Assembly: GCA_049366795.1 (NCBI GenBank)
Contig: JBMNCP010000026.1
Location: 18,608-82,607, forward strand
Source: Desulfobacterales bacterium
Lineage (GTDB): Bacteria; Desulfobacterota; Desulfobacteria; Desulfobacterales; UBA5852
Length of the DNA stretch: 64,000 nucleotides
Direction: 5' to 3'
Positions 7,896 to 41,888 of this stretch are shown here, piece by piece. The notes beneath the pieces were generated by a model. The model did no database searches and was not told the origin of the DNA. It saw nothing but the letters and a program-made list of their open reading frames with translations. Every line of letters begins with the position of its first letter. Position 1 is the first letter of the stretch. Both the position numbers and the translations under genes were made by a program.

Positions 7896-7941
7896 AAAAA
7901 AAACGGAGCGGCAGCGGCCGATGGCGTGCCGCTGCCGCTCC
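7896..7941 (-). terminator. rho-independent terminator ending the tusA-hdr-dsrE operon
   Basis: Perfect 14-bp stem GGAGCGGCAGCGGC / GCCGCTGCCGCTCC with a 9-nt loop. On the minus strand it is followed by G plus eight U. Confidence 0.85.
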
Positions 7942-7984: not shown

Positions 7985-8686
7985 TCAGGCAAACAACACC
8001 CGCTCCATTCGAATACCGGCCTGGGCCATTTCTTCGTACAAGGCGGACAGCCTCGTATTGGCCACTTGCATCTGGCGGTCTCTCTGCGAATCGTCTTCGG
8101 TCGGAAAGCAGGCAAAACACCGCTGATACCGGGCGGTCTGTCCCAGGGAGGTCACCTCGAAATCGCCGCTGAGAAAGGTCTGGGACTGCTGGTAGTTCCC
8201 GAAATGCTCGACGGCCGGAATCAACTCCAGCGTCGCGGATGCCGACACCGGATGCCCCTCGCGGGCGAGATTCAGGTAGTCGTCGAGCGTCATCACCGAC
8301 GTGGTGACGCCTTCCAGATCGTCGAATTTCACGATCATGTCCGAAAGCGAAAACAGACGGGTCTCCACTGAGATGCCGGCGACCTGAAGCTTTTTGAGAT
8401 CCTTGACCAGGTATCGGTTGGCGATCATCACCGCCTGGGAAACGTGCGGGCAGAGGTTGTGCGAACAGCCCCTGGCATAGCACTTGCGGAACGAATAGGC
8501 TTCACCATCGACGGTCCCTTCGAAACGGCACATGAACACGTGGGCACGGTAGGGATGCTTCTTCTGCTGAAAATCCACCGGCACGATCTGAAAGGAAGGT
8601 CTGCAGTCCACCTTGGCTCCGGATAGACTCAGCTCCGTGAGGTCTGCGATTCGGTGAATGTTTCGACTTGCGGTTTGCTGTTCCAT
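7985..8686 (-). CDS. conserved-looking hypothetical protein with Cys/His motif (CYARGCSHNLCPH)
   Basis: 233-aa ORF and last gene of the operon, before a strong terminator. It carries a C-x4-C-x4-C-x-H motif (SWIM-like spacing) and a second Cys pair, CFAC. Confidence 0.6.
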   Translation of the reverse strand: MEQQTASRNIHRIADLTELSLSGAKVDCRPSFQIVPVDFQQKKHPYRAHVFMCRFEGTVDGEAYSFRKCYARGCSHNLCPHVSQAVMIANRYLVKDLKKLQVAGISVETRLFSLSDMIVKFDDLEGVTTSVMTLDDYLNLAREGHPVSASATLELIPAVEHFGNYQQSQTFLSGDFEVTSLGQTARYQRCFACFPTEDDSQRDRQMQVANTRLSALYEEMAQAGIRMERVLFA

Positions 8687-8752
8687 GGATACGCCCCTTC
8701 CCTTCGGGATCTTCCCGCCGGCGCATGGGCCGGATCGCCGTTTGCCGTGTGC

Positions 8753-9127
8753 TCAGTAAACAATCACCGCATCGGCCTGCATGGCCTGAAGGTTGACCTG
8801 CCCGGCGGCCGTGGTCTCGGCGCCTTCCAGCAGATCGGACTCCTCGATGCTGCGCTCCTTGATGCAGGGAACGCACACCAGGAGCTTGCCCCCGAGTTCG
8901 GTGAACTCGGAGATCAACTTTTTCATGGGCGGGAACCCTCCCCCGGACAGCATGTGGTCCACATAGCCCTTCTGGGCCAGGTAGACCCCATTGCCCTGAA
9001 GCACGATGGTGGCCTGGATGTCCATGGCCATGGCCGCGTTGGCCATGACAAAAGGCATCGCCGCCTTCTCCGGGTTTTCGCCTGCACAGGTTCCAAAGTA
9101 GAGAATCTTTTCTTCCTTTTCAGACAT
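8753..9127 (-). CDS. DsrE/DsrF-like sulfur-relay family protein
   Basis: 124 aa. The sequence ILYFGTCAGENPEKAAMPFVMANAAMAMD...LLVCVPC fits the DsrE-fold family pattern. Confidence 0.7.
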   Translation of the reverse strand: MSEKEEKILYFGTCAGENPEKAAMPFVMANAAMAMDIQATIVLQGNGVYLAQKGYVDHMLSGGGFPPMKKLISEFTELGGKLLVCVPCIKERSIEESDLLEGAETTAAGQVNLQAMQADAVIVY

Positions 9128-9161
9128 GTCGGGCTCTCCTCTCGAAATGTAATTTCAATCG

Positions 9162-10094
9162 TCAGGGTTGCGTCTGCCGGGCGATGACGCTCGACAGGTC
9201 TTCCACATTGGCGCCTGCTTTTCTCAAATTGGCAAGGCAGATCGGGCACATGGCCACGATGGTCGCGTCGTTGGACCGGAGATCCTCCATGCGGCGGGCG
9301 GTCACCTCGCCGGCCAGCCGGGGAGAAATCGATTCCGCCGGCCCCCCGCAGCAATGGGTGAAAAGCCCGGCATTGCGGACCGGCATGCATTCGACGCCGA
9401 GGTCCGCCAGGAGCCGGGACGGCATGTCGGAAACCTTGAGATAACGGCCGTAGAAACAGGGATCGTGGAGCGTGACCTGCCGGCGGCCGTTGTGCGACCG
9501 CAGCTTCAGCAGCTCGAAATAGGGATGGACTTCCAATTCCAGCCCCGTGATTTCCGGGTAGAGTTCCTTCAGGGCGTATGTCGTGTGGGGATCCACCGTT
9601 ATCAACCGGCGGATGCCGTTTCGCCGGAATTTGGCGGCGAGCCACCGGGCGTGCCGTTCGAATCCTTCCTGATCCCCGAGGTCGTAGAGCAGAACACCGC
9701 TGTACTCATCCAGGTCCGGGTCATAAAAGAAGTCCACCCCGGAACGGGTGAGAACAGCGGCGATATCGTTCAGAATCCGGTTGAACTTGGACTTTTCCGC
9801 CTTCGGCGTGATGGCCGCGAGCCCCGCCCCGGCCATCCGGGACGGCACATAGCGGCCATATCGGAGATAGTCGGCCCAGGGAGAGTCTTCGAAACGGGCG
9901 AGATAGGCCGTCGATTTCTCGATATAGGGAACGAACTGGTACATCAGGCCGGTGAACAGCAACGTGTCCCCCTGCCGGTTCAGCCCCGCCGATTTCCACC
10001 AGGTGTTGACCATCCGCTTGGGAATGCCGAACGGGTTGCGGGTCCTGTCCACGTTGGCGGCGATCAGATCGATGATGTCCTTGGGGTTATACAT
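9162..10094 (-). CDS. HdrB-like CCG-domain (Fe-S)-binding protein
   Basis: 310 aa with C-terminal ...LHDPCFYGR...HCCGGPAE...AMCPICLANL, a cysteine-rich CCG-domain signature. It overlaps the upstream hdrC-like gene by 8 nt. Confidence 0.75.
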   Translation of the reverse strand: MYNPKDIIDLIAANVDRTRNPFGIPKRMVNTWWKSAGLNRQGDTLLFTGLMYQFVPYIEKSTAYLARFEDSPWADYLRYGRYVPSRMAGAGLAAITPKAEKSKFNRILNDIAAVLTRSGVDFFYDPDLDEYSGVLLYDLGDQEGFERHARWLAAKFRRNGIRRLITVDPHTTYALKELYPEITGLELEVHPYFELLKLRSHNGRRQVTLHDPCFYGRYLKVSDMPSRLLADLGVECMPVRNAGLFTHCCGGPAESISPRLAGEVTARRMEDLRSNDATIVAMCPICLANLRKAGANVEDLSSVIARQTQP

Positions 10095-10398
10095 GGGTCG
10101 GCCTCCTCCAAGTCGCCACGACGAAACGTTTCAACCCCAGGATCACCTCCCCGGGATCGGCCCCCCGCGGGCATGTCTGGGTACAGAGCCCGCAGTGGAG
10201 GCACCGCCAGAGCTCGCGGGCGTTTTCCACGATCCGGTCCCGCGCTCCCAGCTGAAGATACCGTATCATCCGACGCGGGAAGTGTTCGTGAACGAGCGGG
10301 CAGATGGCCGTGCACGTGCCGCAGTTGAAGCACTCCCTCGCCTTTTCGATGCCGTATTCCTCAATGGCGTCCAGAAAATCAGGGTTGATCGTGGTCAT
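10087..10398 (-). CDS. HdrC-like 4Fe-4S dicluster protein
   Basis: 103 aa from MTTINPDF, with CFNCGTCTAICP and CLHCGLCTQTCP. A GGGAGGAAG RBS precedes it. ATGA overlap with the upstream gene. Confidence 0.8.
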   Translation of the reverse strand: MTTINPDFLDAIEEYGIEKARECFNCGTCTAICPLVHEHFPRRMIRYLQLGARDRIVENARELWRCLHCGLCTQTCPRGADPGEVILGLKRFVVATWRRPTHV

Positions 10399-10757
10399 TC
10401 TTCCTCCCGGGGATCCGGCGGCGTCGATGCCTCCGGATCGCTTGTGAAACCTTGATTGGGTGTGGACGTCTTTTCTTCTCCGGTCAGGCCGTACTTGAAG
10501 TAGCTGCCGTCCTTTTCGACTTCCTTGACGATTCCGTATTTTTTCAAGGCGGCGATGTACCAGAGCGTCTCGCCCGTCGGAGTGCCGGTGGCGGCCGCGA
10601 TTTCCGGCACAGTCTTGGAATCCTGCGCCAACGCCTTCCGGATCGCCTGGATGGCCCTTCCCTGGGCCTTGACCTTGGATCTGGCTTGCTGAATCCATGC
10701 CTTGCGCTCTTCCCGAAGGGCCTTCAACGCCTCTTTTCCGCTGGATCGAGGTTGCAT
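10395..10757 (-). CDS. small winged-helix-like protein embedded in the hdr operon
   Basis: 120 aa from MQPRSSGKE, with a GGAGAGG RBS. The segment TVPEIAAATGTPTGETLWYIAALKKYGIVKEVEKDGSYFKYGL looks like HTH plus wing. The C-terminal tail is acidic and low-complexity. Confidence 0.55.
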   Translation of the reverse strand: MQPRSSGKEALKALREERKAWIQQARSKVKAQGRAIQAIRKALAQDSKTVPEIAAATGTPTGETLWYIAALKKYGIVKEVEKDGSYFKYGLTGEEKTSTPNQGFTSDPEASTPPDPREEE

Positions 10758-10810
10758 CGATCGTCCTCTCCCTTGTTCCCGTTTATCCCTGATGTGGATT
10801 CGGACCGTCC

Positions 10811-12718
10811 TCAGGCCGCGACGATGGCGTCGACCATGGCCTCGTACTGCTTGAGCGTCCAGCCGTTGACATCGATGGCGTTCTCGGGGCAAACGGCCAC
10901 ACAGGCGCCGCACCCCGTGCACAGCGCCGGGGTCACCTGGGCCCGTTGGACCCTCCGTCCGGCCGACTCCGCTTCGATCATGCGAAGAGCGCCCTCGGCC
11001 GGACAGGCTTCCACACAACTTCCGGTTCCCCGGCATCGGTCGACGTCGACCTGCGCCACGAAAGGATCCAACTCGACGAATCCCCTGCCCAACAAGGCCG
11101 ATGCCTTGACGGCGGCGCCGCCCGCCGCATTGCAGGCCTCGCCCACATCCATAGGCGCCTGACAGGTTCCGGCCAGCAGAAAACCGGCCTGGGGCAGCTC
11201 GACCGGACGGAGCTTCGGGTGAACCTCCAGCAAAAAGCGATCCGCCCCGACCGGAAGCTTCATCATTTCCACCAGCGGTCTGATTCCGGTCGGTTCCATT
11301 CCAGTGGCCAGCACCACAAGATCCACGGGCACCCGGACCTCCTCCCCGAACGTCAGGGTATCCTTCACGCGCACCGTCAACGGGAACCGGCTGCCCGCGC
11401 CGCCGGCGGACACCGTCGGGGCCTCCTCCGCGTCAAACCGCAGAAATATGACCCCTTTTTGCGACGCCTGATGGTAGATTTCCTCGTGCCCGCGCCCGTA
11501 GGTTCGGATATCGCGGTAGAAGTCATACACACGGGTCCCGGGGTGTCGCTCCCGGATCGTGGCGGCCGTATCGAGAACGGCCGTGCAGCAGGTACGGGAG
11601 CAGTACTCGTTCAGGCTCCCCGGTTCGTCCTCCGGATGGATTCCGGGGATCTGCCGGCTGCCGACACAGTGAATCATGGCGATGGAGCGGATTTCCCGGC
11701 CATTCATGACCAGCCGGTCCCCGGTTCCTGACGCTTCGGCCAAACGCCGGATCACCTCCGGCAGGGTGACGACGTTCTCGAATCGGCCGAAGCCGTATTC
11801 TCCATTCCGGGGGGTATACGACTCAAAACCCGTGGCCAGGACAATGACCCCGGTTTCGATCGTCAGGTCATCGGTATTCGTTGGCGCCGGTGAAGCAAAA
11901 AGGCCTGAGAAAGGCACATAGTCGCCGGCGCGAAGGCCGGCCGGCGCCTCCGGCTCCGGCGGCCCGGGCGGCCGCTTTTGGATCCGAAGTTTGAAATTGC
12001 CGACATATCCTTCGAATGCAGTCACCTCCGAGCAGGTGTGAACGGTGATCCGATCGTCCGCCAGAACCGCCGACCCCAATTCGCGGATCAACGCCTCCGC
12101 TTTTTCACCGGTCGGCGCGACGTGCTCGAGACGGGCGAGGCGGCCCCCGAGAAAAGCCGTTTTCTCGATCAAGGCAACGTCGATGCCGCGCTCGGCCATG
12201 TCCTTTGCCGCCCGCAATCCCGCAATCCCGCCGCCGATGACCGTGGCGTGCCGGCAGGCTTCGACCCGGATCGGCTCCAGGGGTTCGAGGAGTTCTGCCT
12301 TTGCGGCGGCCGCCGACACCAGCCGGGTCGCCTTGTCCGTGGCCATGTCGCCGTGGTGCACCCAGCTGACCTGCTCGCGGATATTGGCGTGCTCGTAGAT
12401 GTAAGGGTTCCCGCCCGCCCTGAGGATGGCGCTGCGAAATGTGGTCTCATGCAAACTCGGCGCGCAGGAGGCCACGACGACCCGGTCGACCGCACCGCTC
12501 TTCAGGTCGTCCATGATCATCTCCTGGCCGGGGTCCGAACACATGAACGTGTTGGTCCGGGCCACCGATACCCCGGGCAGTTTTTCGACCCTTTCACGGA
12601 CGGCTTCGACATCGACGTGATCGGAAATGTTGCCGCCGCAATGGCAGATGTAGACGCCGACCTTGTGCGTGCCGGCGGCGGGCCGGTTTTCATCGTTCAT
12701 ACGGGATGGGTCGCTCAT
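10811..12718 (-). CDS. HdrA/QmoB-like FAD and Fe-S oxidoreductase (no C-terminal MvhD domain)
   Basis: 635 aa. It has VGVYICHCGGNISDHVD (HdrA N-terminal Fe-S domain), VIGGGIAGL, ...CSRTCC..., and a C-terminal 2x[4Fe-4S] region (CRGTGSCVEACP, CTGCGACVAVCP). Confidence 0.85.
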   Translation of the reverse strand: MSDPSRMNDENRPAAGTHKVGVYICHCGGNISDHVDVEAVRERVEKLPGVSVARTNTFMCSDPGQEMIMDDLKSGAVDRVVVASCAPSLHETTFRSAILRAGGNPYIYEHANIREQVSWVHHGDMATDKATRLVSAAAAKAELLEPLEPIRVEACRHATVIGGGIAGLRAAKDMAERGIDVALIEKTAFLGGRLARLEHVAPTGEKAEALIRELGSAVLADDRITVHTCSEVTAFEGYVGNFKLRIQKRPPGPPEPEAPAGLRAGDYVPFSGLFASPAPTNTDDLTIETGVIVLATGFESYTPRNGEYGFGRFENVVTLPEVIRRLAEASGTGDRLVMNGREIRSIAMIHCVGSRQIPGIHPEDEPGSLNEYCSRTCCTAVLDTAATIRERHPGTRVYDFYRDIRTYGRGHEEIYHQASQKGVIFLRFDAEEAPTVSAGGAGSRFPLTVRVKDTLTFGEEVRVPVDLVVLATGMEPTGIRPLVEMMKLPVGADRFLLEVHPKLRPVELPQAGFLLAGTCQAPMDVGEACNAAGGAAVKASALLGRGFVELDPFVAQVDVDRCRGTGSCVEACPAEGALRMIEAESAGRRVQRAQVTPALCTGCGACVAVCPENAIDVNGWTLKQYEAMVDAIVAA

Positions 12719-12802
12719 TGAAGATCTCCCTCGGATTCAGAGGCCGCCGCTCCGGCGGGACTGCCGATCGCCTCGCTCGGGGCGGCGTCCGTTGCCGGCG
12801 GC

Positions 12803-14110
12803 TCAGGCCACGGCCAGCCGGCGGCGCGGTGTCCGTGTCAGGTATTTCGCCGCTTCGACGGCAGCGGCGCCGGACTCGGTGATCGTGTCGACGATGTCCT
12901 TGGGGCCGGCGGCGGCTCCCGCCACGAAAACCCCCTCCATGTCGGTCAGCGTGGGAGCCAGCTTGGGCTGAATCGTGTGAATGAACCGATCCGTGCCGGC
13001 CGAGACCGGGCAGGCGCCCTCGGGATTCCAGGCCGGGATCATCCCCAGGGAAAGCACCACCAGGTCGTGCCCGGCCGTGGCCACGCCCCCGCCCTTCTGG
13101 TCCTCGTAGCGCAGCGCCACCCTGCCATCCTCCGCTCCTGAGAGCGACGCCACCTTGCCCTTGACGAACTCGATCCCCATCGCCTTGGCGTTCTGATAGA
13201 ACTGCTCGTAGCCTTTTCCGAAGGCCCGGATGTCCATGTAGTAGATGGTGATGTCCGCAAGCGGCAGGGCGCCGGACACCAGCATGGCCTGCTTGATGGC
13301 GTACATGCAGCAGACCCTCGAGCAGTAGGAAACGCCCATGCTCTGGTCGCGGGAACCCGCGCACTGGACGTAGGCGATGGAATCCGGCTCCATTCCGTCG
13401 GAAGGCCGCAGCACGCGGTTGTAAGGGCCGTGAGGCGCCAGCAGGCGCTCCATCTGAAGGGAGGTGATCACGTTGGGAACGAGGCCGCTGCCGTATTGGG
13501 GCTTGGTCTCCAACGCGGTCAACTCGAAGCCCGTGGCCAGGACCGCCGCCCGGGCGCGGATCTGCACCGGCTCCGGCTGCTGAAAATAGTCCACCGCGTC
13601 CGTCGGACAGACCTTGGCGCATTTGCCGCAGAGGGTGCAGTTCTCCGCCTCCAGAACGGCGACCTGCGGAATGGCGTTGGAAAAGGGAATGGAAATCGCC
13701 TTGCGGGCGGAAAATCCCCCTTCGTCCGTGTCGGGCGTGTAGACGGGACAGTTGTATTCGCACTGCCGGCACCCGATGCATTTGTCCGGGTCGACGTAGC
13801 GGGGGCGCCGGGTGACCGATGCAATCAGAACATCGCCTTCACGCTCCAGTCCATTCAGATCCGTATAGGTGAGAAGAGTGATCTTCTCGTGATGGGCGGC
13901 GGCGGCCATCTTGGGGGTGGTGATGCAGCTTGCGCAGTCCAGGGTGGGGAAGACCTTCGAAAGCCGGATCATCTTCCCTCCGATGGAGGGGTTCTTCTCC
14001 ACCACCGCCACCTCGAAACCCTGGTCCGCCAGATCCAGCGCCGACTGCAGGCCCGCTATCCCTCCACCGACGACCAGGGCGTCAAATTCCAGGACTTTTT
14101 CGGGATTCAT
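12803..14110 (-). CDS. QmoA/HdrA-like FAD-dependent oxidoreductase with inserted ferredoxin domain
   Basis: 435 aa with VVGGGIAGL, FPTLDCASC, CIGCRQCEYNCP / CTLCGKCAKVCP and CSRVCCMYA. Confidence 0.85.
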   Translation of the reverse strand: MNPEKVLEFDALVVGGGIAGLQSALDLADQGFEVAVVEKNPSIGGKMIRLSKVFPTLDCASCITTPKMAAAAHHEKITLLTYTDLNGLEREGDVLIASVTRRPRYVDPDKCIGCRQCEYNCPVYTPDTDEGGFSARKAISIPFSNAIPQVAVLEAENCTLCGKCAKVCPTDAVDYFQQPEPVQIRARAAVLATGFELTALETKPQYGSGLVPNVITSLQMERLLAPHGPYNRVLRPSDGMEPDSIAYVQCAGSRDQSMGVSYCSRVCCMYAIKQAMLVSGALPLADITIYYMDIRAFGKGYEQFYQNAKAMGIEFVKGKVASLSGAEDGRVALRYEDQKGGGVATAGHDLVVLSLGMIPAWNPEGACPVSAGTDRFIHTIQPKLAPTLTDMEGVFVAGAAAGPKDIVDTITESGAAAVEAAKYLTRTPRRRLAVA

Positions 14111-14537
14111 GGATATCTCCTCGGTTGCTGCCGAAAACAGGCGGTCCCAGTTCCCGGACGATGGCGTTCATCTGGTTGACTTCGTTCAGGAATGCCCGGT
14201 TGCAGACCGTACAGATGGCGGTGAGGCGGAGCCTCCGGATGTCCAGATCGTCGGCCTTCATCATCTGGTAGACCCGATCGAGGCGCTTGGCCAGCGCGTG
14301 GTAGGCGCCTTCGTAGGGGCATTCCTCGCCGCAGGACATGACGATGATCCCGCCGATGCCCTTTCGGAAGCAGCCCAGGTAAAAGGACTCCGGAAAGAGC
14401 ACCGGAGCGCGCACCCTGAAGATGTAAGTGTTCGCCGGATAGGTCGCGTGGGCCTGCCCGACGGAATCGGCGCCCGGGTACGCGCAGGTCTCGGTGGCGA
14501 GAATCAGAATCCGGTTCTGGTCGACTTGGGCTCCCAT
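14082..14537 (-). CDS. MvhD-like (methyl-viologen-reducing hydrogenase delta subunit family) protein, divergent cysteine pattern
   Basis: 151 aa. It can be aligned by eye to the canonical MvhD at 32099-32521 (…SCGEECPYEGAY… versus …SGCHPGDCHYINGNY…), but several Cys differ. It overlaps the next gene by 29 nt. Confidence 0.65.
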   Translation of the reverse strand: MGAQVDQNRILILATETCAYPGADSVGQAHATYPANTYIFRVRAPVLFPESFYLGCFRKGIGGIIVMSCGEECPYEGAYHALAKRLDRVYQMMKADDLDIRRLRLTAICTVCNRAFLNEVNQMNAIVRELGPPVFGSNRGDIHESRKSPGI

Positions 14538-14548
14538 GGTCCCCCCGT

Positions 14549-14803
14549 CTATTTCTTCCGCCTGACGAAATGCTTGTCATAACCGTCGGATTCGACGACT
14601 CCGAGGTATTCGTGTCCCACCTTCCCCGCCCAGGCCGGGATGTCCTTCCGGGTACCGGAATCGTTGGAATAGACCTCGAGAATTTCCCCTACCCTCACCT
14701 TCCCGATGCCCTTCTTGGCTTCGAGAAGCGGCCCTGGACAGGCGCTGCCGCGTGCATCGACGGTGCTTTCCACTTTGATGGTGCTGAGATCCACTGTACT
14801 CAT
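14549..14803 (-). CDS. tusA: TusA/SirA-family sulfurtransferase
   Basis: 84 aa with DARGSACPGPLLEAKK, the CPxP active-site motif. An AAGGAGG RBS precedes it. Confidence 0.85.
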   Translation of the reverse strand: MSTVDLSTIKVESTVDARGSACPGPLLEAKKGIGKVRVGEILEVYSNDSGTRKDIPAWAGKVGHEYLGVVESDGYDKHFVRRKK

Positions 14804-14848
14804 GACAACCTCCTTGAAATCGGTTTATGGTGTTGACTCGGCTGAAAA

Positions 14849-14863
14849 GCAATTCGGATGCCA
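14849..14863 (-). promoter_or_regulatory. sigma54 (-24/-12) promoter of the tusA-hdr-dsrE operon
   Basis: The minus strand reads TGGCATCCGAATTGC, against the consensus TGGCAC-N5-TTGC. It lies about 45 nt upstream of the tusA ATG. A sigma54 activator gene is divergent. Confidence 0.7.
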
Positions 14864-14944: not shown

Positions 14945-14960
14945 GGTGTAGGCTTACACC
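14945..14960. promoter_or_regulatory. inverted repeat GGTGTA-N4-TACACC, candidate activator (UAS) site
   Basis: Perfect 6-bp arms, about 85 nt upstream of the sigma54 promoter and within the divergent intergenic region. Confidence 0.3.
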
Positions 14961-15012: not shown

Positions 15013-16425
15013 ATGAAAGCGGACGGAGGCGCGGGGCTGCTTTTCTTCGACGAACACAATCTCTATTGGAAAACGATCATCGACACCATGGCCGACGGAC
15101 TCATGATCGTGGATCCCAACGGTGAAATCGTTTTCGCCAACCGGACCCTGGAGGAGCTCTCGGGCTATCGACGGGAGGAGCTGATCGGCGCCTCCTGCGA
15201 AATCCTTGGATGCAACGCCTGCTTCGGGGAGCGGCGGGACGGCAAGGACAAGTACTGCGCCCTGTTCAAGGGGGAGCGAATCCGCCGATGGCAGTGCACC
15301 TTCCGCCACCGGGACGGGGGGGAGATCCACGTCGTCAAGAACGCCGCCGTCCTGCGGAACGCCGAGGGAACCGTGATCGGCGGGGTGGAAACCCTGAGCG
15401 ACATCAGCGAAGTGCGGGCCCGGGACCAGGTGATCCACAATCTGCGGCGGGAATTGGGCGGAAAGGACGGCTTCCACGGGATCCTGGGAAGTTCGCCCGC
15501 CATGATCAAGGTCTTCGGGCTGGTGGAAAGCGCGGCGCACTCCGATGCGCCGGTCATCATCTATGGCGAGAGCGGGACGGGAAAAGAACTCGTGGCCTCG
15601 GCGATCCACGAGATCGGCGCCAACCGGGGCGGCCCCTTCATAAAGGTCAACTGCAGCGCGCTGAGCGAAAGTCTCCTCGAAAGCGAGCTTTTCGGCCATG
15701 TCAAGGGCGCCTTCACGGGCGCCAGCCACCACCGGGTGGGACGCTTCGAGGCGGCCGACGGGGGCGACATCTTCCTGGACGAAATCGGCGACATCTCGCC
15801 GGCCATCCAGGTGAAACTCCTCCGGGTGCTCCAGGAGCGTGAAATCGAGCGGGTCGGCGACCATCGGCCCGTTCCCATCAACGTCCGGGTGTTGTCGGCC
15901 ACCAACAAGAATCTGGAAAAGCGAGTGGAGGAGGAAGCGTTTCGCAAGGATCTTTTCTACCGCATCGGGGTGATCCCGATACACCTCCCGCCGCTGAGGG
16001 AACGGGGGGAGGACATTCCCCTGCTCGTCAACGCCTTCATGAACCGCATCCGGCTCAAGACCGGAAAACCCATCTCGGGCGTCAGCCAGGAAGCCTACGA
16101 GTTGCTCTCCGCCTACGATTGGCCCGGGAACGTCCGGGAGCTCATCAACGCCATCGAGCTGGCCTTCGTGCTATGCCCGGGCGGGGAGGTTCTGCCCAGC
16201 CATCTTCCCGCCAGGATCGTCGGACGCCGGTCCGAAGCCGCCCCGGGCGAATGCCGTGTTACCGTCGACACGGGCGAGCGCACCCGGCTGATCGACGCGC
16301 TGAAACAGGCCGGCGGCAACAAGGCGGAGGCGGCGCGCATCCTGGGAATCAGCCGCATGGCCCTGTACAACCGGCTCAAGAAATTCGGCATCGAGGTCGA
16401 AAAATCGGTCAACCGCGGGCACTAG
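15013..16425 (+). CDS. PAS-domain sigma54-dependent transcriptional activator (NtrC/Fis family, no receiver)
   Basis: Start at MKADGG, after a GGAGGAGG RBS. The sequence has a PAS domain, then VIIYGESGTGKELVA...GAFTGA...ESELFGH-type AAA+ motifs, and a C-terminal Fis HTH (AARILGISRMALYNRLKK). Confidence 0.9.
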   Translation: MKADGGAGLLFFDEHNLYWKTIIDTMADGLMIVDPNGEIVFANRTLEELSGYRREELIGASCEILGCNACFGERRDGKDKYCALFKGERIRRWQCTFRHRDGGEIHVVKNAAVLRNAEGTVIGGVETLSDISEVRARDQVIHNLRRELGGKDGFHGILGSSPAMIKVFGLVESAAHSDAPVIIYGESGTGKELVASAIHEIGANRGGPFIKVNCSALSESLLESELFGHVKGAFTGASHHRVGRFEAADGGDIFLDEIGDISPAIQVKLLRVLQEREIERVGDHRPVPINVRVLSATNKNLEKRVEEEAFRKDLFYRIGVIPIHLPPLRERGEDIPLLVNAFMNRIRLKTGKPISGVSQEAYELLSAYDWPGNVRELINAIELAFVLCPGGEVLPSHLPARIVGRRSEAAPGECRVTVDTGERTRLIDALKQAGGNKAEAARILGISRMALYNRLKKFGIEVEKSVNRGH

Positions 16426-16450
16426 ACGTTTCCTGTCCGAATGCTTCCCA

Positions 16451-16492
16451 TCGGTATCGGTATCGGTATCGGTATCGGTATCGGTATCGGGA
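16451..16492. repeat. hexanucleotide microsatellite (TCGGTA)6 plus one degenerate unit
   Basis: Direct reading gives tcggta x6 then tcggga. It sits in the convergent intergenic region 26 nt after the activator stop codon. Confidence 0.95.
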
Positions 16493-16720
16493 TCGAAATA
16501 AAGGGGTCGAGGTGTCCAGGAGTCAAGGGATACAGGGGTCGAGGGAGAGAAAGGGATTTGTTTTCACCGGATAGTGTCCATCCACAATGGATTGGACAGG
16601 CACGAGCGTGTCCGATTCAGAAATGCGGATTTTGGGTTTTGATCAAGGCCGCACAAGGGTTTACGGTGAGGCGTACTCCCCTTCACATCCACACCAACGC
16701 TTTTCGGGAAAGATCCTGTT

Positions 16721-25856: not shown

Positions 25857-26738
25857 TTATGCACCGGCCGCCGACCTGATCTTTTGCTGAAAACCCGGAG
25901 TGACGGCCAGGTTCAGCGGTAAACCCAGTTCGGAATGGGAAAGACCGATGGCCATCCCCAACAGCTGGGGGAGATAAAGAATGGTGATTCCCAGGTCTTC
26001 ACCGTAGCGGGATGCGACCTTGTCCTGGTAGGCTTCCAGGTTCATCTGGCACATCGGACAGACCGTCACCACGGCGTCGGCTCCCCGGGCGGCCTTGAGG
26101 ATCCGGTAAACGCGCTCCAGGGCGACGGGCATCTTGGTGTTCATGTGCGATGCCCCACAGCATTTCGCCCCCTCGGACCAGGGGTGGACGGTGGCCCCTG
26201 TGGCTTCGATCAGGGGCTCCATCGACGTCGGAGATTCGGGGTGATCGAAAACCGCGTAGGGTCGCAGGCACTGGCAGCCATAGTAGGGTGCGATGGCGAG
26301 TCCGGAAAGTTCATGGTCGAGCCGCTGCCGGATGGCGTCGGCGCCGACATCCCGGGCCAGCACGTCGAGCAGATGCCGAGGTCTGGATTTCCCCTGGAGG
26401 TGTAGACCGGTCTCGGCCAGCAGGACGTTGACGCCTTCGAGCCGTTTCGGATTTCCGTAGACTTCCATTTCGACCCGTTTCAGGTTGAGGTAGCAGGCGC
26501 TGCAGGGCACCAGGACCTCCGGGTCGTCCGCCATGGTTTCGGCGATGGCGAGGTTCACGGCCGGCAGCGCATCGGTCAGCCGGTTGCTGACAGCCGATGC
26601 CGCACTGGCGCCGCAGCAGGTCCAATCCGTCAGTTCGGTGAGCTGCACGCCCATCCCGGCAAGGAAAGCCTTGGTGGACTGGTTGTACTCTCTCGCGGTG
26701 CCCGTCAGGGAGCAGCCCGGATAGTAGAGATAGTTCAT
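25857..26738 (-). CDS. hdrB: heterodisulfide reductase subunit B-like (two CCG domains)
   Basis: 293 aa from MNYLYYPGCSL, with ...TCCGAS...PCSACY... and ...YGCQC...KCCGAS...CPMCQMN. A GGAGG RBS precedes it. ATGA overlap with hdrC. Confidence 0.9.
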   Translation of the reverse strand: MNYLYYPGCSLTGTAREYNQSTKAFLAGMGVQLTELTDWTCCGASAASAVSNRLTDALPAVNLAIAETMADDPEVLVPCSACYLNLKRVEMEVYGNPKRLEGVNVLLAETGLHLQGKSRPRHLLDVLARDVGADAIRQRLDHELSGLAIAPYYGCQCLRPYAVFDHPESPTSMEPLIEATGATVHPWSEGAKCCGASHMNTKMPVALERVYRILKAARGADAVVTVCPMCQMNLEAYQDKVASRYGEDLGITILYLPQLLGMAIGLSHSELGLPLNLAVTPGFQQKIRSAAGA

Positions 26739-27331
26739 TGCCGCGCCTCCATGGTTTCGGCTTTTCGGAACATGGCTTCCAGGGATCTGTGGCCGCCCCC
26801 GCCCTCCCGCCTGTGGGGACCGAGCTTTCCCTTGCGCATCAGGCGCATGCCCATCGGAGTATACTTCAGTGGCAGCAAGGGTTTCCGGAGCATCTGGGAC
26901 CTGAAATACGCCGAGATGAACCCCATCTCGTTCACCCGCCCGTGGCGGCGGATGCTGTCCATGAAGCATCGGTAGAATGCGGTGCCTTCCTGATGCTCCG
27001 GCATGCCTTCCCGCGCCGCGATCTGCTTGAGCCTGGACATGGCGTCGGTCAGGGGCAGCCCCCGCGGGCATCGCAAGGTGCAGGTGTAGCAGGCGGAGCA
27101 CAGCATGAAGGTATGGCTGCGGAAGATGGCCTCGGTGTCGCCCATGAGGACGAGCCGCCACATGTGGCGCGGGGTCAGATCCATTGCGAATGCGTTGGGG
27201 CATGAGGCTGTACAGGTACCGCACTGCATGCAGGCGTTGACATTCTCCCGTATCGCCGTCAGGTCATCCGCGACGCGGGTCCCTGCAGGCGGAGACCCGC
27301 TGTTCGTCGTATGCGTCTCAGGGGATTTCAT
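26735..27331 (-). CDS. hdrC: heterodisulfide reductase subunit C-like (2x[4Fe-4S])
   Basis: 198 aa with CMQCGTCTASCP and CSACYTCTLRCP. An AAGGAGAA RBS precedes it. Confidence 0.9.
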   Translation of the reverse strand: MKSPETHTTNSGSPPAGTRVADDLTAIRENVNACMQCGTCTASCPNAFAMDLTPRHMWRLVLMGDTEAIFRSHTFMLCSACYTCTLRCPRGLPLTDAMSRLKQIAAREGMPEHQEGTAFYRCFMDSIRRHGRVNEMGFISAYFRSQMLRKPLLPLKYTPMGMRLMRKGKLGPHRREGGGGHRSLEAMFRKAETMEARQ

Positions 27332-27379: not shown

Positions 27380-30300
27380 TCAGCAGGCAAGAGCCGCATC
27401 GATGGTCTCCAGCATCTGTCCCGCCGGGTAGCCGTCGAGATAGGCCGCGCCGTTGGGACACACGGAGGCGCAGGCGCCGCAGCCCTGGCACATGGCGGTG
27501 TTGACCAGGATCTGCTCGTTTTCCGGATCTATGGTGCGCGCCTCGTAGGGGCACGCCTCGATGCAGCGCTCGCACAGCGCGCACAGGCTGGTGTGCACGC
27601 CGGCAACGATTCGGTCCGCGTACAAGCGGTCGCGGCAGAGAATTCGCAGACCCCGCTGCGCGGCCGCCTCGGCCGATGCGATGGATTCGGCGATCGTCCT
27701 GGGTGAAAGCGACAGTCCGCAGGCAAATACACCCTCCTTGAGGGCGTCCACCGGACGCCACTTGAATTCCGCGGCCTCGAAAAACCCGTCCCGGTCCAGG
27801 GTGGCGCCGAAGCTCTCGGCCAGGGACCGGGGCAGCTCCGGGATGACGCCGGTCGCCAGCACCACCAGATCGGCGGCGATCTCCACGTCGCGCCCCAGAA
27901 TCGGTTCGAATCCACCGACCTTGACACCGTCGCCGTCAGGCGCGACCCGCGGCTTCCGGTCGACCGTGTAGGGGATGAAGGTCACCCGGTCTTTTCTCGC
28001 CTGTGTAAAACAGGATTCAGTGAACCCATAGCTCATCATGTCCCGGTAGAAGACATAGATCGCCACCTCCGGTTTGAGTTCTCTGAGCCTCCGGATGTGC
28101 TTGAGCGTCGTCTGGCAGCAGACGCGGCTGCAATAGTTGCGGGGCTCCTCCCGGGAATCGACGCACTGGATCATGACCACGTTTCGGAGCCGCCCGCCCT
28201 CGACCTGGTTTTCATTCAGACGGCGTTCCAGCTCGCTCTGGGTGACGATCTCCGGGCTGGCGCCATATCCGTAAGAGGTGGTGGGAGCTTCCCGTCCTCC
28301 GGTCGCCAGAATGGCGACCCCGTGCTCCACCACCCGGGCGGCGCCCTGGCTGTCTTCCAGCGTCGTATGGAACCGGCCCACCTGCCCCATGGAGGTGATG
28401 ACCCGGGTCCCGGTGTTCACCTCGATGCCCGGATGCCCCTCGACCCGCGAGCGGATCTCCTCGAGCAACGGGGCAGTGGGGCGGCCTTCGAGGGTCTGCC
28501 CGATCCACAGCAGATTGCCGCCCAAGGCATCCCCGGCTTCCACCAGCTCCACCGGGTAGCCGTGATCGGCAATCGCCAGCGCCGCATGCATGCCCGCGAT
28601 TCCGCCTCCGATCACCATCGCGCGCTGGGCCACGGGGATGGCGGCCTTCGGCAGGGTCTCCACCCGCTTCAGTCTCGCGGCGGCCATCAGCAGTTCACCG
28701 GTGGCGGCGAAGGCTGCCCTCGCCGGATCTACCGCCTCCGTCGCCGCCTCGCGGGTCAGCGTCGGGGTGCGGATGTCCACGACCTCCATCAGGCGGGGAT
28801 CCAGTTGGACCTCCTTGCCGAGCGCCTTGAGTTTTCGGGCATAGACATAAGGCAGGCAGGCGCCGATCAGCAGTCGGTTCGGGTGATGTCGTTTCACTGC
28901 CTCCGTGAGCTGCCCCCAGCCTTCCGAAGTACAGAGACGCGGAAGGGTCTGCACCCGCGTGACCGCAGGATCCTGCCGCAGTCTCGCCTCCAGAACCTTC
29001 AGGTCCAGGGCGGCGGGAATCGCCCCGTCACAGCTGCAGAGAACCGCCAGCATCCGGGGGGACTCCCGGGAGACGTCCTCATAAAACGGCGTTGCCGTCG
29101 GCGTCTCCGGAACGAGGCTCCCGCCGCTGCCGTGGATCACGCGGGAAGCCTCAGCCGCCGCCGCTCCCGCCTGAATCACCGACTCGCTGATATCCTTGAG
29201 GCCTGAAAAGGCCCCGGCGACCACCACGCCCTCCCGGGCGGTGCGGGTCATCGAAAACGGCTCGGTCTCCGGGAAGCCCCAGGGATTCAGGCCGATGCCC
29301 ACCAGTTCGGCCAGTTCGGCCGATCCCGCCGCAGGCCGCTGCCCGACGGACAGCACGATCATGTCGTAATTCTCGTCCCGTGCGGCGCTGTCGTACCCTG
29401 AGAACCTGACCTGCAACTCTCCCGTCCTGCGGTCGGGAATGACGGAGTGGATCCGTCCCCGCTCCAACCGCACGCCGTCGGCTTCGGCCTCCTGCCGGTA
29501 ACGCTCGAAGGGTTTGCCGAAGGTCCGCATGTCCATGTAGTAGATGACCGTTTCGATCGGCTCCCCCGCCTTCCGGGCGCGCTCGCGGGCGATTCTGGCC
29601 TCCTTCAGTGCGAACATGCAGCAGATGCTCGAACAGAAATCCGCTCCGGACTGGAGATCGCGCGAACCCACGCACTGCACCCAGGCGATGCGCCGCGCCG
29701 GCCGCCCGTCCGAGGGCCGCTGCAACCGACCGGCAAAAGGCCCGGTGCCGCTGAGAATGCGTTCGAATTCGAGGCTGGTAACCACATCCGGAAACACCCC
29801 GTACCCGAAGGGGTTCTTGCCTTCGGACGGGTTGAAATAGTCGGTTCCTCCGGCCATCACGATGGCGCCGACTTCCAGATGCGGACCCTCCGGCGTCTTG
29901 AGCGATTCGAAAATCTGAACGATCTTTGGAATCAGCACATCGGGGTCGAAGGGCTTGATCAGATAATCCACGGCGCCGAGCTTCATGGCCTCGACGGCGG
30001 TCTCCACCGTGGCGTAGGCGGTAATCATCACCACCGGCAGTTCCGGAAAGAGGTCCTTCGCCTTTTCGAGCACCTCGACGCCGTCCATCTCCGCCATCTT
30101 GATGTCCAGGAGCATCAGGTCGATGGTGCCGGTCTTGAGCGTTTCGATCGCCTCCGGACCGGATGCCGCCATCGAGACGGAAAAGCCGCCCTCCACCGAC
30201 AGCCATTCCTTGAGGGAATCGCGGACGATCAGTTCGTCGTCGACGACGAGAATACGGAATCCCTGGCGATCGCCGTCCTCTAAACGGATGGCATCGGTCG

Positions 30301-30826
30301 GGCAGACTTTCGCACACTCCCCGCACCGGGTGCAGACGGTCGTGTCGATCCGGTAAGGATTGGGAATCGCGTGGGGAACCGGCAGATAGACGGCCTTCCG
30401 GGTCTCGAGCCCCTCGTTGAAATCGTTCGACACCTCCACCGGGCAGACCTCCACGCATCGACCGCAGCCGATGCACAGGGCCGGGTCGACAGGGTTGGGC
30501 TTCTGCTTCAAAGTGACCTGGTAGTGACCGGGCTCGCCCTCCACCGATGCCAGATCAGTGGAAAGGAGAATGTCGATGTTGTCGTGAAACAGCCCTTTTC
30601 TCAGACAGAACTGGGAGCTGCTGTCCCGGTCGACCAGGGGCAGCATTTTGCACATGCCGCAGCGGTCGGTCGGAAACTGATAGTCGAGTTGGCTGAGCAC
30701 GCCGCCCAGGTGGGGGCGGCGGTCGATCAGGGTCACCCCGTAACCGAACTCCGCAAGATCGAGGCTGGCACGAATACCGCTGATGCCCCCTCCGACCACG
30801 AGTGCCTTGCCGATCTTTCGTTGCAT
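27380..30826 (-). CDS. fused QmoA-like + HdrA-like flavo-iron-sulfur protein with an inserted CheY-type receiver domain
   Basis: 1148-aa uninterrupted ORF.
- Module 1: VVGGGISG, CIGCGRCVEVCP/CTRCGECAKVCP, ...CSSICCMFA.
- REC insert, aa ~190-306 (nt 29909-30259): FRILVVDDE...IDLMLLDIKMAEMDG...VVMITAY...YLIKPFD.
- Module 2 from aa ~590: AVLCSCDG, VIGGGIAG, CSRVCCQT, and C-terminal CALCERCIEACP/CQGCGACASVCP. Confidence 0.9.
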   Translation of the reverse strand: MQRKIGKALVVGGGISGIRASLDLAEFGYGVTLIDRRPHLGGVLSQLDYQFPTDRCGMCKMLPLVDRDSSSQFCLRKGLFHDNIDILLSTDLASVEGEPGHYQVTLKQKPNPVDPALCIGCGRCVEVCPVEVSNDFNEGLETRKAVYLPVPHAIPNPYRIDTTVCTRCGECAKVCPTDAIRLEDGDRQGFRILVVDDELIVRDSLKEWLSVEGGFSVSMAASGPEAIETLKTGTIDLMLLDIKMAEMDGVEVLEKAKDLFPELPVVMITAYATVETAVEAMKLGAVDYLIKPFDPDVLIPKIVQIFESLKTPEGPHLEVGAIVMAGGTDYFNPSEGKNPFGYGVFPDVVTSLEFERILSGTGPFAGRLQRPSDGRPARRIAWVQCVGSRDLQSGADFCSSICCMFALKEARIARERARKAGEPIETVIYYMDMRTFGKPFERYRQEAEADGVRLERGRIHSVIPDRRTGELQVRFSGYDSAARDENYDMIVLSVGQRPAAGSAELAELVGIGLNPWGFPETEPFSMTRTAREGVVVAGAFSGLKDISESVIQAGAAAAEASRVIHGSGGSLVPETPTATPFYEDVSRESPRMLAVLCSCDGAIPAALDLKVLEARLRQDPAVTRVQTLPRLCTSEGWGQLTEAVKRHHPNRLLIGACLPYVYARKLKALGKEVQLDPRLMEVVDIRTPTLTREAATEAVDPARAAFAATGELLMAAARLKRVETLPKAAIPVAQRAMVIGGGIAGMHAALAIADHGYPVELVEAGDALGGNLLWIGQTLEGRPTAPLLEEIRSRVEGHPGIEVNTGTRVITSMGQVGRFHTTLEDSQGAARVVEHGVAILATGGREAPTTSYGYGASPEIVTQSELERRLNENQVEGGRLRNVVMIQCVDSREEPRNYCSRVCCQTTLKHIRRLRELKPEVAIYVFYRDMMSYGFTESCFTQARKDRVTFIPYTVDRKPRVAPDGDGVKVGGFEPILGRDVEIAADLVVLATGVIPELPRSLAESFGATLDRDGFFEAAEFKWRPVDALKEGVFACGLSLSPRTIAESIASAEAAAQRGLRILCRDRLYADRIVAGVHTSLCALCERCIEACPYEARTIDPENEQILVNTAMCQGCGACASVCPNGAAYLDGYPAGQMLETIDAALAC

Positions 30827-30881: not shown

Positions 30882-32024
30882 TTAGTGGATGCCGACGACC
30901 TCCTGGAACTCCGCCTCGCGAAACGCCGAAAGCGGCGGGGCCTCGGCCGGATCCCGGCCGGCGAGGACATCGAAGGCCCCCTGCGTGTCGTGGGCGATCG
31001 TGCGGAACACCTCCATCACCGGGATGTCGTTCGGGCAGGCGTTGGTGCACTGGCCGCAGCCGACGCAGGCCGTGCTCATATGAGCCAGCCGGGTGAGATG
31101 GTAGAACACGGTATCCGTCGGCAGCTTGATCGCGCCCTTGCGGCGGGCCCAAGCCATGTACTGGGCGGGCTCGTGGTTGAAGACATCGGTGAGAAAGACG
31201 CATTCCTTGCAGTAGCAAACCGGGCAGGCCACCCGGCAGTTGTAACAGTTGACGCAGCCGGCGAAGTAGGTCGTCAGTTTTTCCAGGCTGTCGGTGGCGT
31301 TTCGGGTCGCCTCGAACATCCGGTCCCTTGCGGACGCCCTCTCCGTGACCAGCGATTCCACGGCGGCTTTACGCTTCACGGAAACAGGCGTTTCCGGGTA
31401 GGCAAGCCGTCCCAGGATCTCCTCGCCCTTGGGGCTGCGTCCTTCCAAAAGGATTTCGCGGTCCACATCCACCCCGATCAGCCCGATCGACAGGTCGGCC
31501 CACTCGGGCACCGGGTGTTCACAGACCTGGCATGCGGAGGCCAGGTCGACGCCGTCCATGGCCGCCCCCTTGCCCGACAGCACCTGAGCGGCGAACCGGC
31601 GGGTCGTTTCGGCCGCATCCTCACCCACGAACCGCAGATAGTCTTTGTTCTGGTAAGCCCCGAGGCAGTCCACCCCGATGACCAGCAGTTCGTCCAACCT
31701 GGCCTGCTTGAGCTTCACCAGCTCCACCAGCGCTCGAATTTCGCAAGGCCGCAGCACCACCGCCACCCGACCCCCGAAAGGCTTGCGGGATAGCTTCGAA
31801 ACGACCTTGGCCGTATTCATGGGGAACGCCGGGGCCAGCGGGTCGGCGCCTTCCAGGTCCTTCGGATCGCTGATCAGGGTCGGCATGACCATGGCCTTCA
31901 TGGGAAGCCGTCTCGGCACGAGAAGCGCGCTGACGTCCTCCATGCCCAGCAAATCGTTGAAAAACCCCTTGAGACTTGCCAGCAGATCCCCTTCCTTGAC
32001 GTCGAGTTTTACCTTGGTCGCCAT
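30882..32024 (-). CDS. FrhB/FdhB-family (F420-hydrogenase/dehydrogenase beta-like) flavo-Fe-S protein
   Basis: Start at MATKVKLDV (GGAGCGG RBS). It has CVNCYNCRVACPVCYC and CVGCGQCTNACP plus an FrhB-like N-terminal region. The family assignment is from memory. Confidence 0.65.
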   Translation of the reverse strand: MATKVKLDVKEGDLLASLKGFFNDLLGMEDVSALLVPRRLPMKAMVMPTLISDPKDLEGADPLAPAFPMNTAKVVSKLSRKPFGGRVAVVLRPCEIRALVELVKLKQARLDELLVIGVDCLGAYQNKDYLRFVGEDAAETTRRFAAQVLSGKGAAMDGVDLASACQVCEHPVPEWADLSIGLIGVDVDREILLEGRSPKGEEILGRLAYPETPVSVKRKAAVESLVTERASARDRMFEATRNATDSLEKLTTYFAGCVNCYNCRVACPVCYCKECVFLTDVFNHEPAQYMAWARRKGAIKLPTDTVFYHLTRLAHMSTACVGCGQCTNACPNDIPVMEVFRTIAHDTQGAFDVLAGRDPAEAPPLSAFREAEFQEVVGIH

Positions 32025-32098
32025 GTTTCCGCTCCATTTCGCGTGTTGTCCCGGCACCGGCGGGCCCTGGATCGGGACCGCCTCCCGGCGCCCAAATT

Positions 32099-40313: not shown

Positions 40314-40407
40314 TCGCCGCTCCTGATCACGCCGTCGTTCCTGCCGCATGAACGCGACGGGAAAGTCTCGAGTGGAAGTTTCGGCCGTCAACGGGGTTGA
40401 CGTCCGT

Positions 40408-40884: not shown

Positions 40885-40940
40885 TGAATCGCTTTCTCCC
40901 TGCGCGTATGGGTTCGACGTTTTCTGAAAGCCCCCTCCGG

Positions 40941-41852: not shown

Positions 41853-41888
41853 CCGAATCACCCTCCACGTTTTTGAAAAGAGGAGAGT

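Follow-up and report, generated by a model that had tools for sequence, protein, structure and literature searches.

The window examined here comprises 64,000 nucleotides of contig JBMNCP010000026.1 (positions 18,608 to 82,607 of the forward strand) from a Desulfobacterales bacterium. On its minus strand it carries a nine-gene operon that apparently encodes a complex of the Qmo/Hdr type in which the accessory set, the regulator and one of the protein families are new. Two HdrA-derived flavoproteins, a free-standing MvhD-like protein and HdrC- and HdrB-like proteins are encoded in this operon together with TusA, a DsrE-like protein, a small winged helix-turn-helix (wHTH) protein and a protein with conserved Cys and His residues, hereafter the Cys/His protein. 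We propose, with a confidence that falls a little short of an even balance, that the products constitute a sigma54-inducible HdrA-type complex exchanging electrons between ferredoxin, menaquinone or a thiol/persulfide site and the sulfur bound to TusA, the DsrE-like protein or the Cys/His protein.

Layout, conservation and regulation of the operon

An earlier note on this DNA had read the genes as a single minus-strand transcription unit. All nine open reading frames (ORFs), from tusA to the gene of the Cys/His protein, were found at the positions it gave, both in the ORF list and by Pfam and NCBIfam profiles, and its three overlaps, promoter and terminator were recovered as well. The profile searches also upheld the identities of the genes, with the Cys/His protein having no family match. 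In the direction of transcription, and all on the minus strand, the unit encodes TusA (14549-14803; PF01206, E 7e-20), the free-standing MvhD/FlpD-like protein (14082-14537; PF02662, E 3e-18), a short HdrA-like flavoprotein of 435 residues (12803-14110), a long HdrA-like flavoprotein of 635 residues (10811-12718), the small, Cys-free protein of 119 residues (10395-10754), an HdrC-like 2x[4Fe-4S] protein with two CxxCxxCxxxC motifs (10087-10398), an HdrB-like protein with one CCG domain (9162-10094), a DsrE-family protein (8753-9127; PF02635, E 1e-15) and the Cys/His protein of 233 residues (7985-8686). The mvhD and hdrA genes overlap by 29 nucleotides (14110 versus 14082), the small gene and hdrC by an ATGA (10398-10395) that places the stop codon of the small gene within the start of hdrC, and hdrC and hdrB by 8 nucleotides (10094-10087); the remaining intergenic gaps measure 11, 84, 56, 34 and 66 nucleotides. 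A purine-rich, Shine-Dalgarno-like stretch precedes each of the nine start codons, and translation is probably coupled where the genes overlap.

The unit is bounded by a sigma54 -24/-12 promoter, TGGCAT-N5-TTGC(T), which can be read from the sequence at 14849-14863 on the minus strand (TGGCATccgaaTTGCT at 14863-14848) and lies 46 nucleotides upstream of tusA, and by an intrinsic terminator at 7896-7941 on the same strand. The latter is a GC-rich hairpin of 14-16 base pairs followed by a U8 tail (dG -41.9 kcal/mol, z = -6.3), and none of 200 shuffled sequences equalled it. A simple scan for internal sigma70 promoter and terminator signals found no excess over shuffled sequence. The claim that no apr, sat or dsr gene is adjacent also stands, as none was found among the large ORFs scanned in the 64-kb window.

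To recover related loci, the Cys/His protein was used as the bait against one genome per species; 114 relatives were confirmed and 80 loci were kept, with colinearity scored in the 58 loci that have enough upstream DNA and the promoter in 60. The hosts of the loci kept are nearly all Desulfobacterales, Desulfomonilaceae, Desulfatiglandaceae and Syntrophales, and the carriers include the cultured Desulfosarcina variabilis (locus L069) and metagenome-assembled genomes (MAGs) of Desulfobacula and Desulfotignum. The full colinear set TusA-MvhD-HdrA(short)-HdrA(long)-small protein-HdrC-...-DsrE-Cys/His is present in 54 of the 58 loci, all 54 of which possess TusA and DsrE; they fall into 35 loci of an HdrCB type and 19 of a QmoC type (see below). 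A near-consensus TGGCAY-N5-TTGCW element lies upstream of tusA in 55 of 60 loci, and a stricter sigma54 pattern has a chance frequency of 0.014 per 260 nucleotides. Taken together with a divergent activator gene in 44 of the 54 colinear loci, these counts indicate that the transcription unit, the promoter type and the regulator are conserved features and not products of chance. That tusA and dsrE are linked to Hdr/Qmo-like genes, as the earlier note had seen in the window, hence holds across dozens of species, and as this linkage is conserved the genes of the window are not ordinary QmoAB-HdrCB orthologues.

With a promoter bearing the -24 GG and -12 GC elements at the correct spacing, and with an AAA+ activator gene next to it, the operon fits predicted sigma54 control. 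The divergently transcribed activator gene (15013-16425, plus strand) codes for PAS, AAA+ and Fis-type HTH domains (PAS, E 2e-14; Sigma54_activat, PF00158, E 2e-67; HTH_8, E 5e-13); its ORF opens at 14827, and the likely start is the ATG at 15013, after GGAGGAGG. The PAS domain contains five Cys residues in the arrangement C124-x4-C129-x2-C132-x11-C144-x12-C157, all of which are invariant in the 48 orthologues compared. We take the C-x2-C-x11-C part of this array to resemble the Fe-S-binding PAS domain of NreB, and it is a reasonable guess that the activator is an Fe-S or thiol-based redox sensor or a sensor of sulfane sulfur. A perfect palindrome, GGTGTA-AGCC-TACACC (14945-14960), is situated about 95 nucleotides upstream of the -24 element, with AT-rich sequence after it; its assignment as a candidate activator-binding site is weak because the GGTGTA-N4-TACACC motif is not shared by the related loci. 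Just past the stop codon of the activator gene lies a near-perfect (ATCGGT)x7.7 microsatellite (16450-16495), followed by a degenerate 8/16-nucleotide repeat (16498-16546).

In most relatives the sigma54 promoter is found 300-430 nucleotides upstream of tusA, as against 46 in the window. The leader of D. variabilis (L069, 3399-3692) contains an ORF of 97 residues that is TusA-fold-like, has the CP motif replaced by 'FS' and gives no Pfam match, and a further locus (L014) shows a weak second TusA match (29%). A riboswitch in these long leaders was considered and set aside, given that no Rfam family was found in the three related loci scanned and that the extra ORF fills the space.

Predicted redox core and accessory proteins

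The domain boundaries of HdrA and the functions of its branches are used here as we take them to have been established by the work on the methanogen structure 5odc. The short flavoprotein aligns to methanogen HdrA over approximately positions 136-565 (E 4e-112) and to the NCBIfam HdrA2 model over positions 139-562. It comprises a thioredoxin-reductase-like flavin adenine dinucleotide (FAD) core with an inserted 2x[4Fe-4S] ferredoxin domain, and lacks both the N-terminal domain and the C-terminal ferredoxin domain. The long flavoprotein aligns to the HdrA of 5odc over residues 5-237 and 317-637 (E 1e-122 to 2e-124) and skips residues 241-310; it is made up of an N-terminal four-Cys domain, the FAD core and the C-terminal ferredoxin domain, with a Pro-rich linker at the place of the inserted ferredoxin domain. 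The domain losses in the two chains are apparently complementary, such that the pair jointly holds one full HdrA domain set with two FAD cores, as if a single HdrA had been divided into two parts that complete each other. The cluster-binding Cys residues of both proteins are kept across about 60 orthologues. The sHdrA of sulfur oxidisers (6tjr) is a far weaker match to either of them (E 1e-36 for the short and 3e-29 for the long protein), and a QmoA-like paralogue that occurs in related loci is only about 31% identical.

The names QmoA and QmoB had been applied to these products in the earlier note, and it is their occurrence as a flavoprotein pair that stands, whereas both stand far nearer to the HdrA of methanogens (E 1e-110 to 1e-124) than these names imply. 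Its statement that the long protein has no MvhD tail is borne out by the 635-residue chain, which ends after the C-terminal ferredoxin domain, and by the separate MvhD gene upstream. In the long protein the first motif of the C-terminal ferredoxin domain (C562, C568 and C572) takes the form C-x5-C-x3-C, with the middle Cys of CxxCxxCxxxC absent, in all 61 orthologues; the cluster at this point, on the way to HdrC, may be of the [3Fe-4S] kind or have a ligand other than Cys.

Alignment of the MvhD-like protein to solved MvhD chains showed that it lacks the first Cys of the canonical CxxC and the Cys of 'VMCSG'. All 54 orthologues keep C18, C69, C73, C109 and C112, with C109-x2-C112 representing a gained pair. 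The altered Cys set that had been ascribed to it therefore amounts to the loss of two canonical Cys residues and the gain of two new, conserved ones.

The HdrC-like protein is recovered both by the NCBIfam qmoC model NF038018 (E 4e-22, 79 bits, over model positions 4-99 only) and by the HdrC model TIGR03290 (E 2e-13). It keeps all eight Cys residues in 67 of 67 orthologues, and it appears to be equivalent to the soluble N-terminal part of QmoC. The HdrB-like protein has a single complete CCG motif (C213...C248-C249...C283-x2-C286) within a PF02754 domain at residues 207-291; its N-terminal half is free of Cys, and the Cys residues of the motif are kept in 47 of 47 orthologues. The 19 colinear loci of the QmoC type have no HdrB, and in these the HdrC-like gene instead encodes a full-length QmoC-like protein of 383-389 residues with a membrane domain. 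These proteins match the qmoC model over its whole length, with 190-230 bits against an equivalog cut-off of 300 bits, and the QmoC of the alternating variants is apparently a paralogue of canonical QmoC. The description of the complex as soluble hence holds for the HdrCB form found in the window, but not for the 19 of 54 colinear relatives with a QmoC-like membrane subunit.

Among the accessory proteins, TusA has a single conserved Cys, C22 of its CPGP motif, which all 60 orthologues share. The DsrE-like protein bears a C85-x2-C88 pair; of 70 orthologues, all keep C85 and 69 keep C88. The Cys of the DsrE-like structure 3mc3 falls at the position of C85 in an alignment, and 3mc3 lacks a counterpart of C88. 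Further DsrE-like and DsrE2-like (PF13686) genes are often located just downstream in the relatives. The small protein occurs at the same position in all 54 colinear loci, with its ATGA coupling to hdrC conserved. An AlphaFold2 (AF2) model (pLDDT 79), predicted with alignments of database homologues, consists of a 40-residue helix followed by a winged helix-turn-helix. A Foldseek search matched it to wHTH proteins of the ArsR/SmtB/MarR type with a probability of 1.0 (E about 1e-3), and a profile search of PDB sequences gave a weak ArsR-like match (E 0.017). These results agree with the wHTH fold that had been proposed from the sequence. The protein may be a structural subunit or an in-operon regulator. 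A DsrD-like identity, considered on account of a similar '...Y(F/G)L' wing, was rejected as profile and fold searches matched only ArsR/MarR-type wHTH domains.

The Cys/His protein apparently founds a new, unannotated family with a two-repeat structure. It has no Pfam or NCBIfam match, and relaxing the Pfam search to E 10 gave only a meaningless hit to DUF7821. The family is matched by 830 database clusters (118 representatives at 50% identity), for which all the names given are 'hypothetical'. Its invariant motifs are FRKCYARGCxxNLCPH and QRCxxC, and its AF2 model (pLDDT 81) shows two repeats, each with a three-stranded sheet and a long helix; Foldseek found no fold match for it in the PDB (best E 0.013, TM below 0.2). 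Relatives with a single repeat (110-120 residues) and distant two-repeat relatives lack the Cys residues, and hence the Cys/His site looks to have been acquired in the subfamily linked to Hdr-type clusters.

A second type of cluster containing the family is exemplified by L048 (7929-15666), with similar versions in nine further loci (L024, L028, L032, L034, L047, L050, L058, L060 and L073). It comprises a sigma54 activator with a Cys-rich PAS domain, one to three Cys/His paralogues and a 171-residue Cys protein at the front, followed by a 412-residue QmoA-like protein, a 536-residue QmoB-like protein with a fused MvhD, HdrC and a short HdrB. It lacks TusA and DsrE, though the Cys/His protein and the same kind of activator are present. 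Among the distant homologues, a Cys-less two-repeat version is followed by an APS kinase gene (L081, 137-1581) and a single-repeat version occurs near a sulfotransferase gene (L082, 523-3275), each being a single case on a short contig. That the ancestral domain was tied to activated-sulfate metabolism is possible but unsupported.

Proposed function and competing explanations

The core of the proposed complex would be a heterodimer of both HdrA-derived flavoproteins, which would mimic the HdrA homodimer of methanogens with a single set of paths, an arrangement that would lend itself to flavin-based bifurcation or confurcation of electrons. With the free MvhD-like protein as the adaptor to a partner, HdrC would pass electrons out to the one-cluster HdrB, the putative thiol/disulfide or persulfide site; in a third of the relatives electrons would exit via the QmoC-like membrane subunit to menaquinone. 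TusA, the DsrE-like protein with its CxxC and the Cys/His protein would most likely present the substrate as Cys-bound sulfur, with a persulfide or polysulfide being converted to sulfide or the reaction running in reverse, and the activator, through its five-Cys PAS domain, probably responds to the redox state or to sulfane sulfur by switching the operon on. Action on a carrier-bound persulfide or trisulfide, as the earlier note had suggested, is plausible; the assembly of the products, the substrate, the direction of electron flow and the signal of the sensor are all features that we infer.

The sHdr complex and DsrC both receive sulfane sulfur from TusA and DsrE-type proteins. The S0/HS- couple has a potential of about -270 mV, menaquinone one of -75 mV and ferredoxin one of about -450 mV. 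As the first value lies near the mean of the other two, bifurcation or confurcation would, on a rough estimate, be energetically sensible. A more specific version of the proposal, that the operon encodes a previously unrecognised bifurcating or confurcating enzyme which acts on the TusA/DsrE persulfide with the Cys/His protein as a subunit, and which links the sulfide/zero-valent-sulfur couple to ferredoxin and to menaquinone or a thiol couple, is possible, although we lean towards doubting it. If true, such an enzyme would represent a new energy-conserving node that could explain the handling, or even the oxidation, of reduced sulfur by 'sulfate reducers', and also the missing second acceptor of the MetFV-Hdr enzymes.

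Several observations weigh against a complex acting on carrier-bound sulfur. HdrB is missing from the QmoC-type relatives and, if the function is the same in all members, HdrB cannot be the universal substrate-converting site. The CxxC of the DsrE-like protein fits a plain dithiol/disulfide role equally as well as persulfide carriage. The second cluster type dispenses with TusA and DsrE, and therefore the sulfur carriers may be accessory. The contexts of five distant homologues of the Cys/His protein are unrelated (APS kinase, sulfotransferase, a Tmc-like set and others) and share no common partner. Finally, about 23 of the 80 loci have metV and metF adjacent to the operon, which speaks for a partner in C1 metabolism.

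This last adjacency makes a partnership with methylene-tetrahydrofolate (methylene-THF) reductase a real rival, in which the module would transfer electrons for MetFV and correspond, in Desulfobacterota, to the MetFV-HdrABC-MvhD enzyme of Moorella. The Wood-Ljungdahl step, whether run as methyl-THF oxidation or as methylene-THF reduction, would be tied to ferredoxin and, in addition, to menaquinone in the QmoC type or to a thiol/disulfide couple in the HdrCB type. TusA and DsrE would be a protein thiol/disulfide co-substrate or mere accessories. The metV (PF12225, E 3e-32) and metF genes follow the Cys/His gene on the same strand, at a distance of at most 47 nucleotides in 16 loci. The short-gap loci include D. 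variabilis and all Desulfobacula loci with enough sequence, and gaps of the Desulfobacula/D. variabilis type (18-19 nucleotides) leave no room for a terminator before metVF. With metVF included, all six kinds of Moorella-type subunit are present in these loci, and many hosts are complete oxidisers via the Wood-Ljungdahl pathway (PMC2702500). Most related loci, however, have no adjacent metVF; the pair is nearly confined to the HdrCB type, with only two QmoC-type loci, at gaps of about 430 nucleotides, and in the window the operon closes with its strong terminator, no metVF follows and no metF occurs among the ORFs scanned. A role in the C1 pathway would also leave the invariant TusA, DsrE and Cys/His genes unexplained, and a specialised sigma54 activator would be odd for an enzyme of a central pathway. 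On balance we consider this explanation rather improbable.

We also think it unlikely that the complex is a protein-disulfide (thiol-switch) reductase in which no sulfur atom is moved and electrons from HdrB or QmoC recycle the carrier, for example in redox-stress defence or with the carrier as the high-potential acceptor of bifurcation. Such a role would account for C88 of the DsrE-like protein, which is kept in 69 of 70 orthologues and absent from the nearest solved DsrE-like protein, and for the retention of one complete CCG motif in HdrB. The one-CCG arrangement is that of DsrK-type subunits acting on DsrC. The Cys-rich PAS domain of the activator would equally suit a redox sensor. This role is less easily reconciled with the single conserved Cys of TusA, typical of a persulfide carrier, with the additional DsrE- and DsrE2-like genes downstream in relatives, which look like a sulfur relay, and with the QmoC-type relatives that have no HdrB. 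Finally, the genes might be an ordinary QmoAB-HdrCB set whose sole partner is an adenosine 5'-phosphosulfate (APS) reductase encoded elsewhere, tusA and dsrE being incidental. The two HdrA-like flavoproteins, MvhD and the HdrC/QmoC-like module do recall Qmo (PMC3333476), and alternation between QmoC and HdrCB is known for canonical Qmo (PMC10504309). This possibility has next to no chance of being correct, as 54 of the 58 loci keep tusA, dsrE and the Cys/His gene linked to the module, which effectively refutes it. Moreover, no Apr, Sat or dsr family is found among the recurrent flanking families of the 80 loci or among the scanned ORFs of the window, both HdrC (79 bits) and the QmoC-like proteins (190-230 bits) score below the 300-bit cut-off, and a separate qmoCBA-aprAB is listed for Desulfobacula toluolica, while Desulfobacula MAGs carry the present cluster.

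The operon bears on several gaps in the electron transfer of sulfate reducers, namely which partners the many HdrA-like proteins have, what becomes of zero-valent sulfur in the cytoplasm, and what donates electrons to MetFV-type methylene-THF reductases or accepts them. It is widespread (the Cys/His protein was confirmed in 114 stretches from species-representative genomes and matches 830 protein clusters), tightly conserved and separately regulated, and it joins a predicted bifurcation core of the HdrA type with sulfur carriers and, in part of the lineages, with MetVF. Evidence is accumulating that so-called sulfate reducers can operate parts of the sulfur cycle backwards (PMC13293266). Research into how electron bifurcation works would have an interest in a naturally 'split HdrA' heterodimer such as the one predicted here, and the presence of the operon in the cultured D. 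variabilis makes these hypotheses directly testable.

Neighbouring redox genes and comparison with known systems

The window is rich in other redox genes. A 1148-residue HdrA-like poly-ferredoxin flavoprotein (27380-30826, minus strand) contains a response-regulator receiver domain at residues 192-301, representing an unusual fusion of signalling and electron transfer. Three further Hdr-type genes lie nearby on the same strand (25857-27224, 30882-32057 and 32552-35992), and the Hdr-type products of this region include a two-CCG protein of 455 residues, an FrhB/FdhB-like Fe-S protein and a 1146-residue HdrL-like protein that combines a GltD-type NAD(P)H module with an HdrA-like part. The source genome is rich in HdrA paralogues, as has been reported for Desulfobacterium autotrophicum. 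Further along, the region 38584-44834 encodes MinD/ParA-type Fe-S ATPases with ferredoxin inserts and proteins with Nitro_FeMo-Co (NifB/X-like) domains; a very similar gene set occurs beside a distant Cys/His homologue in locus L084 (10960-16429). A 993-residue fusion of an FAD-linked oxidase (GlcD-like), a 4Fe-4S dicluster domain and two CCG domains (47973-50954, plus strand) is a dehydrogenase of the LdhH/GlcDF type and adds a further CCG-containing enzyme to the window.

Of the known systems, the MvhADG-HdrABC complex of methanogens (5odc, 7bkb and 8rvu) provides the best sequence matches for both flavoproteins and for MvhD, and the FAD core and all the cluster-binding domains of HdrA are represented in the operon. 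It differs in that the HdrA domains are here distributed over two chains, HdrB has one CCG motif versus two, the MvhD ligands are altered and there is no hydrogenase. The sHdr system, with the gene order hdrC1B1A-hyp-hdrC2B2 together with TusA/DsrE3 and LbpA, resembles the operon in the linkage of Hdr-like genes to TusA and a DsrE-family protein and in the small gene between hdrA and hdrC. However, sHdr has two HdrC and two HdrB proteins, as opposed to one HdrC and one single-CCG HdrB here, and one short sHdrA in place of two long methanogen-type HdrA derivatives. MvhD is present here, some relatives of the operon have no HdrB, and neither LbpA, the lipoate-binding protein, nor lipoate-assembly genes were found in the operon or among its conserved flanking families. 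The Moorella thermoacetica enzyme, said to have been described by Mock and colleagues in 2014, reportedly consists of MetF, MetV, HdrA, HdrB, HdrC and MvhD. It shares with the operon the co-encoded MvhD, HdrA, HdrC and HdrB, to which metVF is added in about 23 of the 80 loci; in contrast, the window has no metVF, HdrA is split in two, QmoC variants exist, and TusA, DsrE, the wHTH protein and the Cys/His protein have no Moorella counterpart.

A full-text literature search found no description of the operon, though one may exist in Pereira et al. 2011 or Appel et al. 2021, and the earlier note's inability to match its composition to a described system was to this extent justified. What came nearest was a remark on 'type II Qmo' (PMC10504309) and notes of HdrA next to metF in syntrophic sulfate-reducing bacteria (PMC10553843). 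Sulfur exchange between TusA and DsrE has been shown in vitro in Desulfobacterota for the YTD cluster/DsrEFH type II of sulfur disproportionators and cable bacteria (PMC13293266). The YTD cluster, in which yedE/yeeE, tusA and dsrE are joined by two or three conserved hypothetical genes that form DsrEFH, resembles the operon in that genes for TusA, a DsrE-family protein and conserved hypothetical proteins stand together in Desulfobacterota (PMC13293266), but it has no Hdr/Qmo genes, whereas the operon has no YedE/YeeE gene and one DsrE-like gene rather than a trio.

The resemblance to Qmo lies in the two HdrA-derived flavoproteins, the MvhD-type module and the HdrC-like ferredoxin module. In both cases this last module either continues into a membrane di-haem domain, as QmoC, or stands beside a separate HdrB, an alternation documented for canonical Qmo (PMC10504309). 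Canonical Qmo is clustered and partnered with APS reductase, as in sat-aprBA-qmoABC (PMC3333476), whereas no aprBA is adjacent here. The canonical QmoB has a fused C-terminal MvhD-like domain, as against a separate MvhD with changed Cys residues, and the short flavoprotein of the operon carries an inserted ferredoxin domain. HdrC and the QmoC-like relatives remain under the qmoC cut-off, and the operon invariably includes TusA, DsrE, the wHTH protein and the Cys/His protein, under predicted sigma54 control. The supplement of PMC10504309 lists a qmoCBA-aprAB elsewhere in the Desulfobacula toluolica genome, the present cluster being known from MAGs of that genus, and PMC10504309 labels a likely counterpart in Desulfotignum balticum as HdrA-HdrA-HdrB and not as Qmo. 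A 'type II' QmoAB has been delineated that is closer to HdrA, occurs with or without Apr/Dsr and is of unknown function (Neukirchen et al. 2023, PMC10504309). The operon appears to be neither canonical Qmo, nor sHdr, nor a YTD cluster, and it may correspond to this loosely defined 'type II Qmo', the description of which fits the flavoprotein pair.

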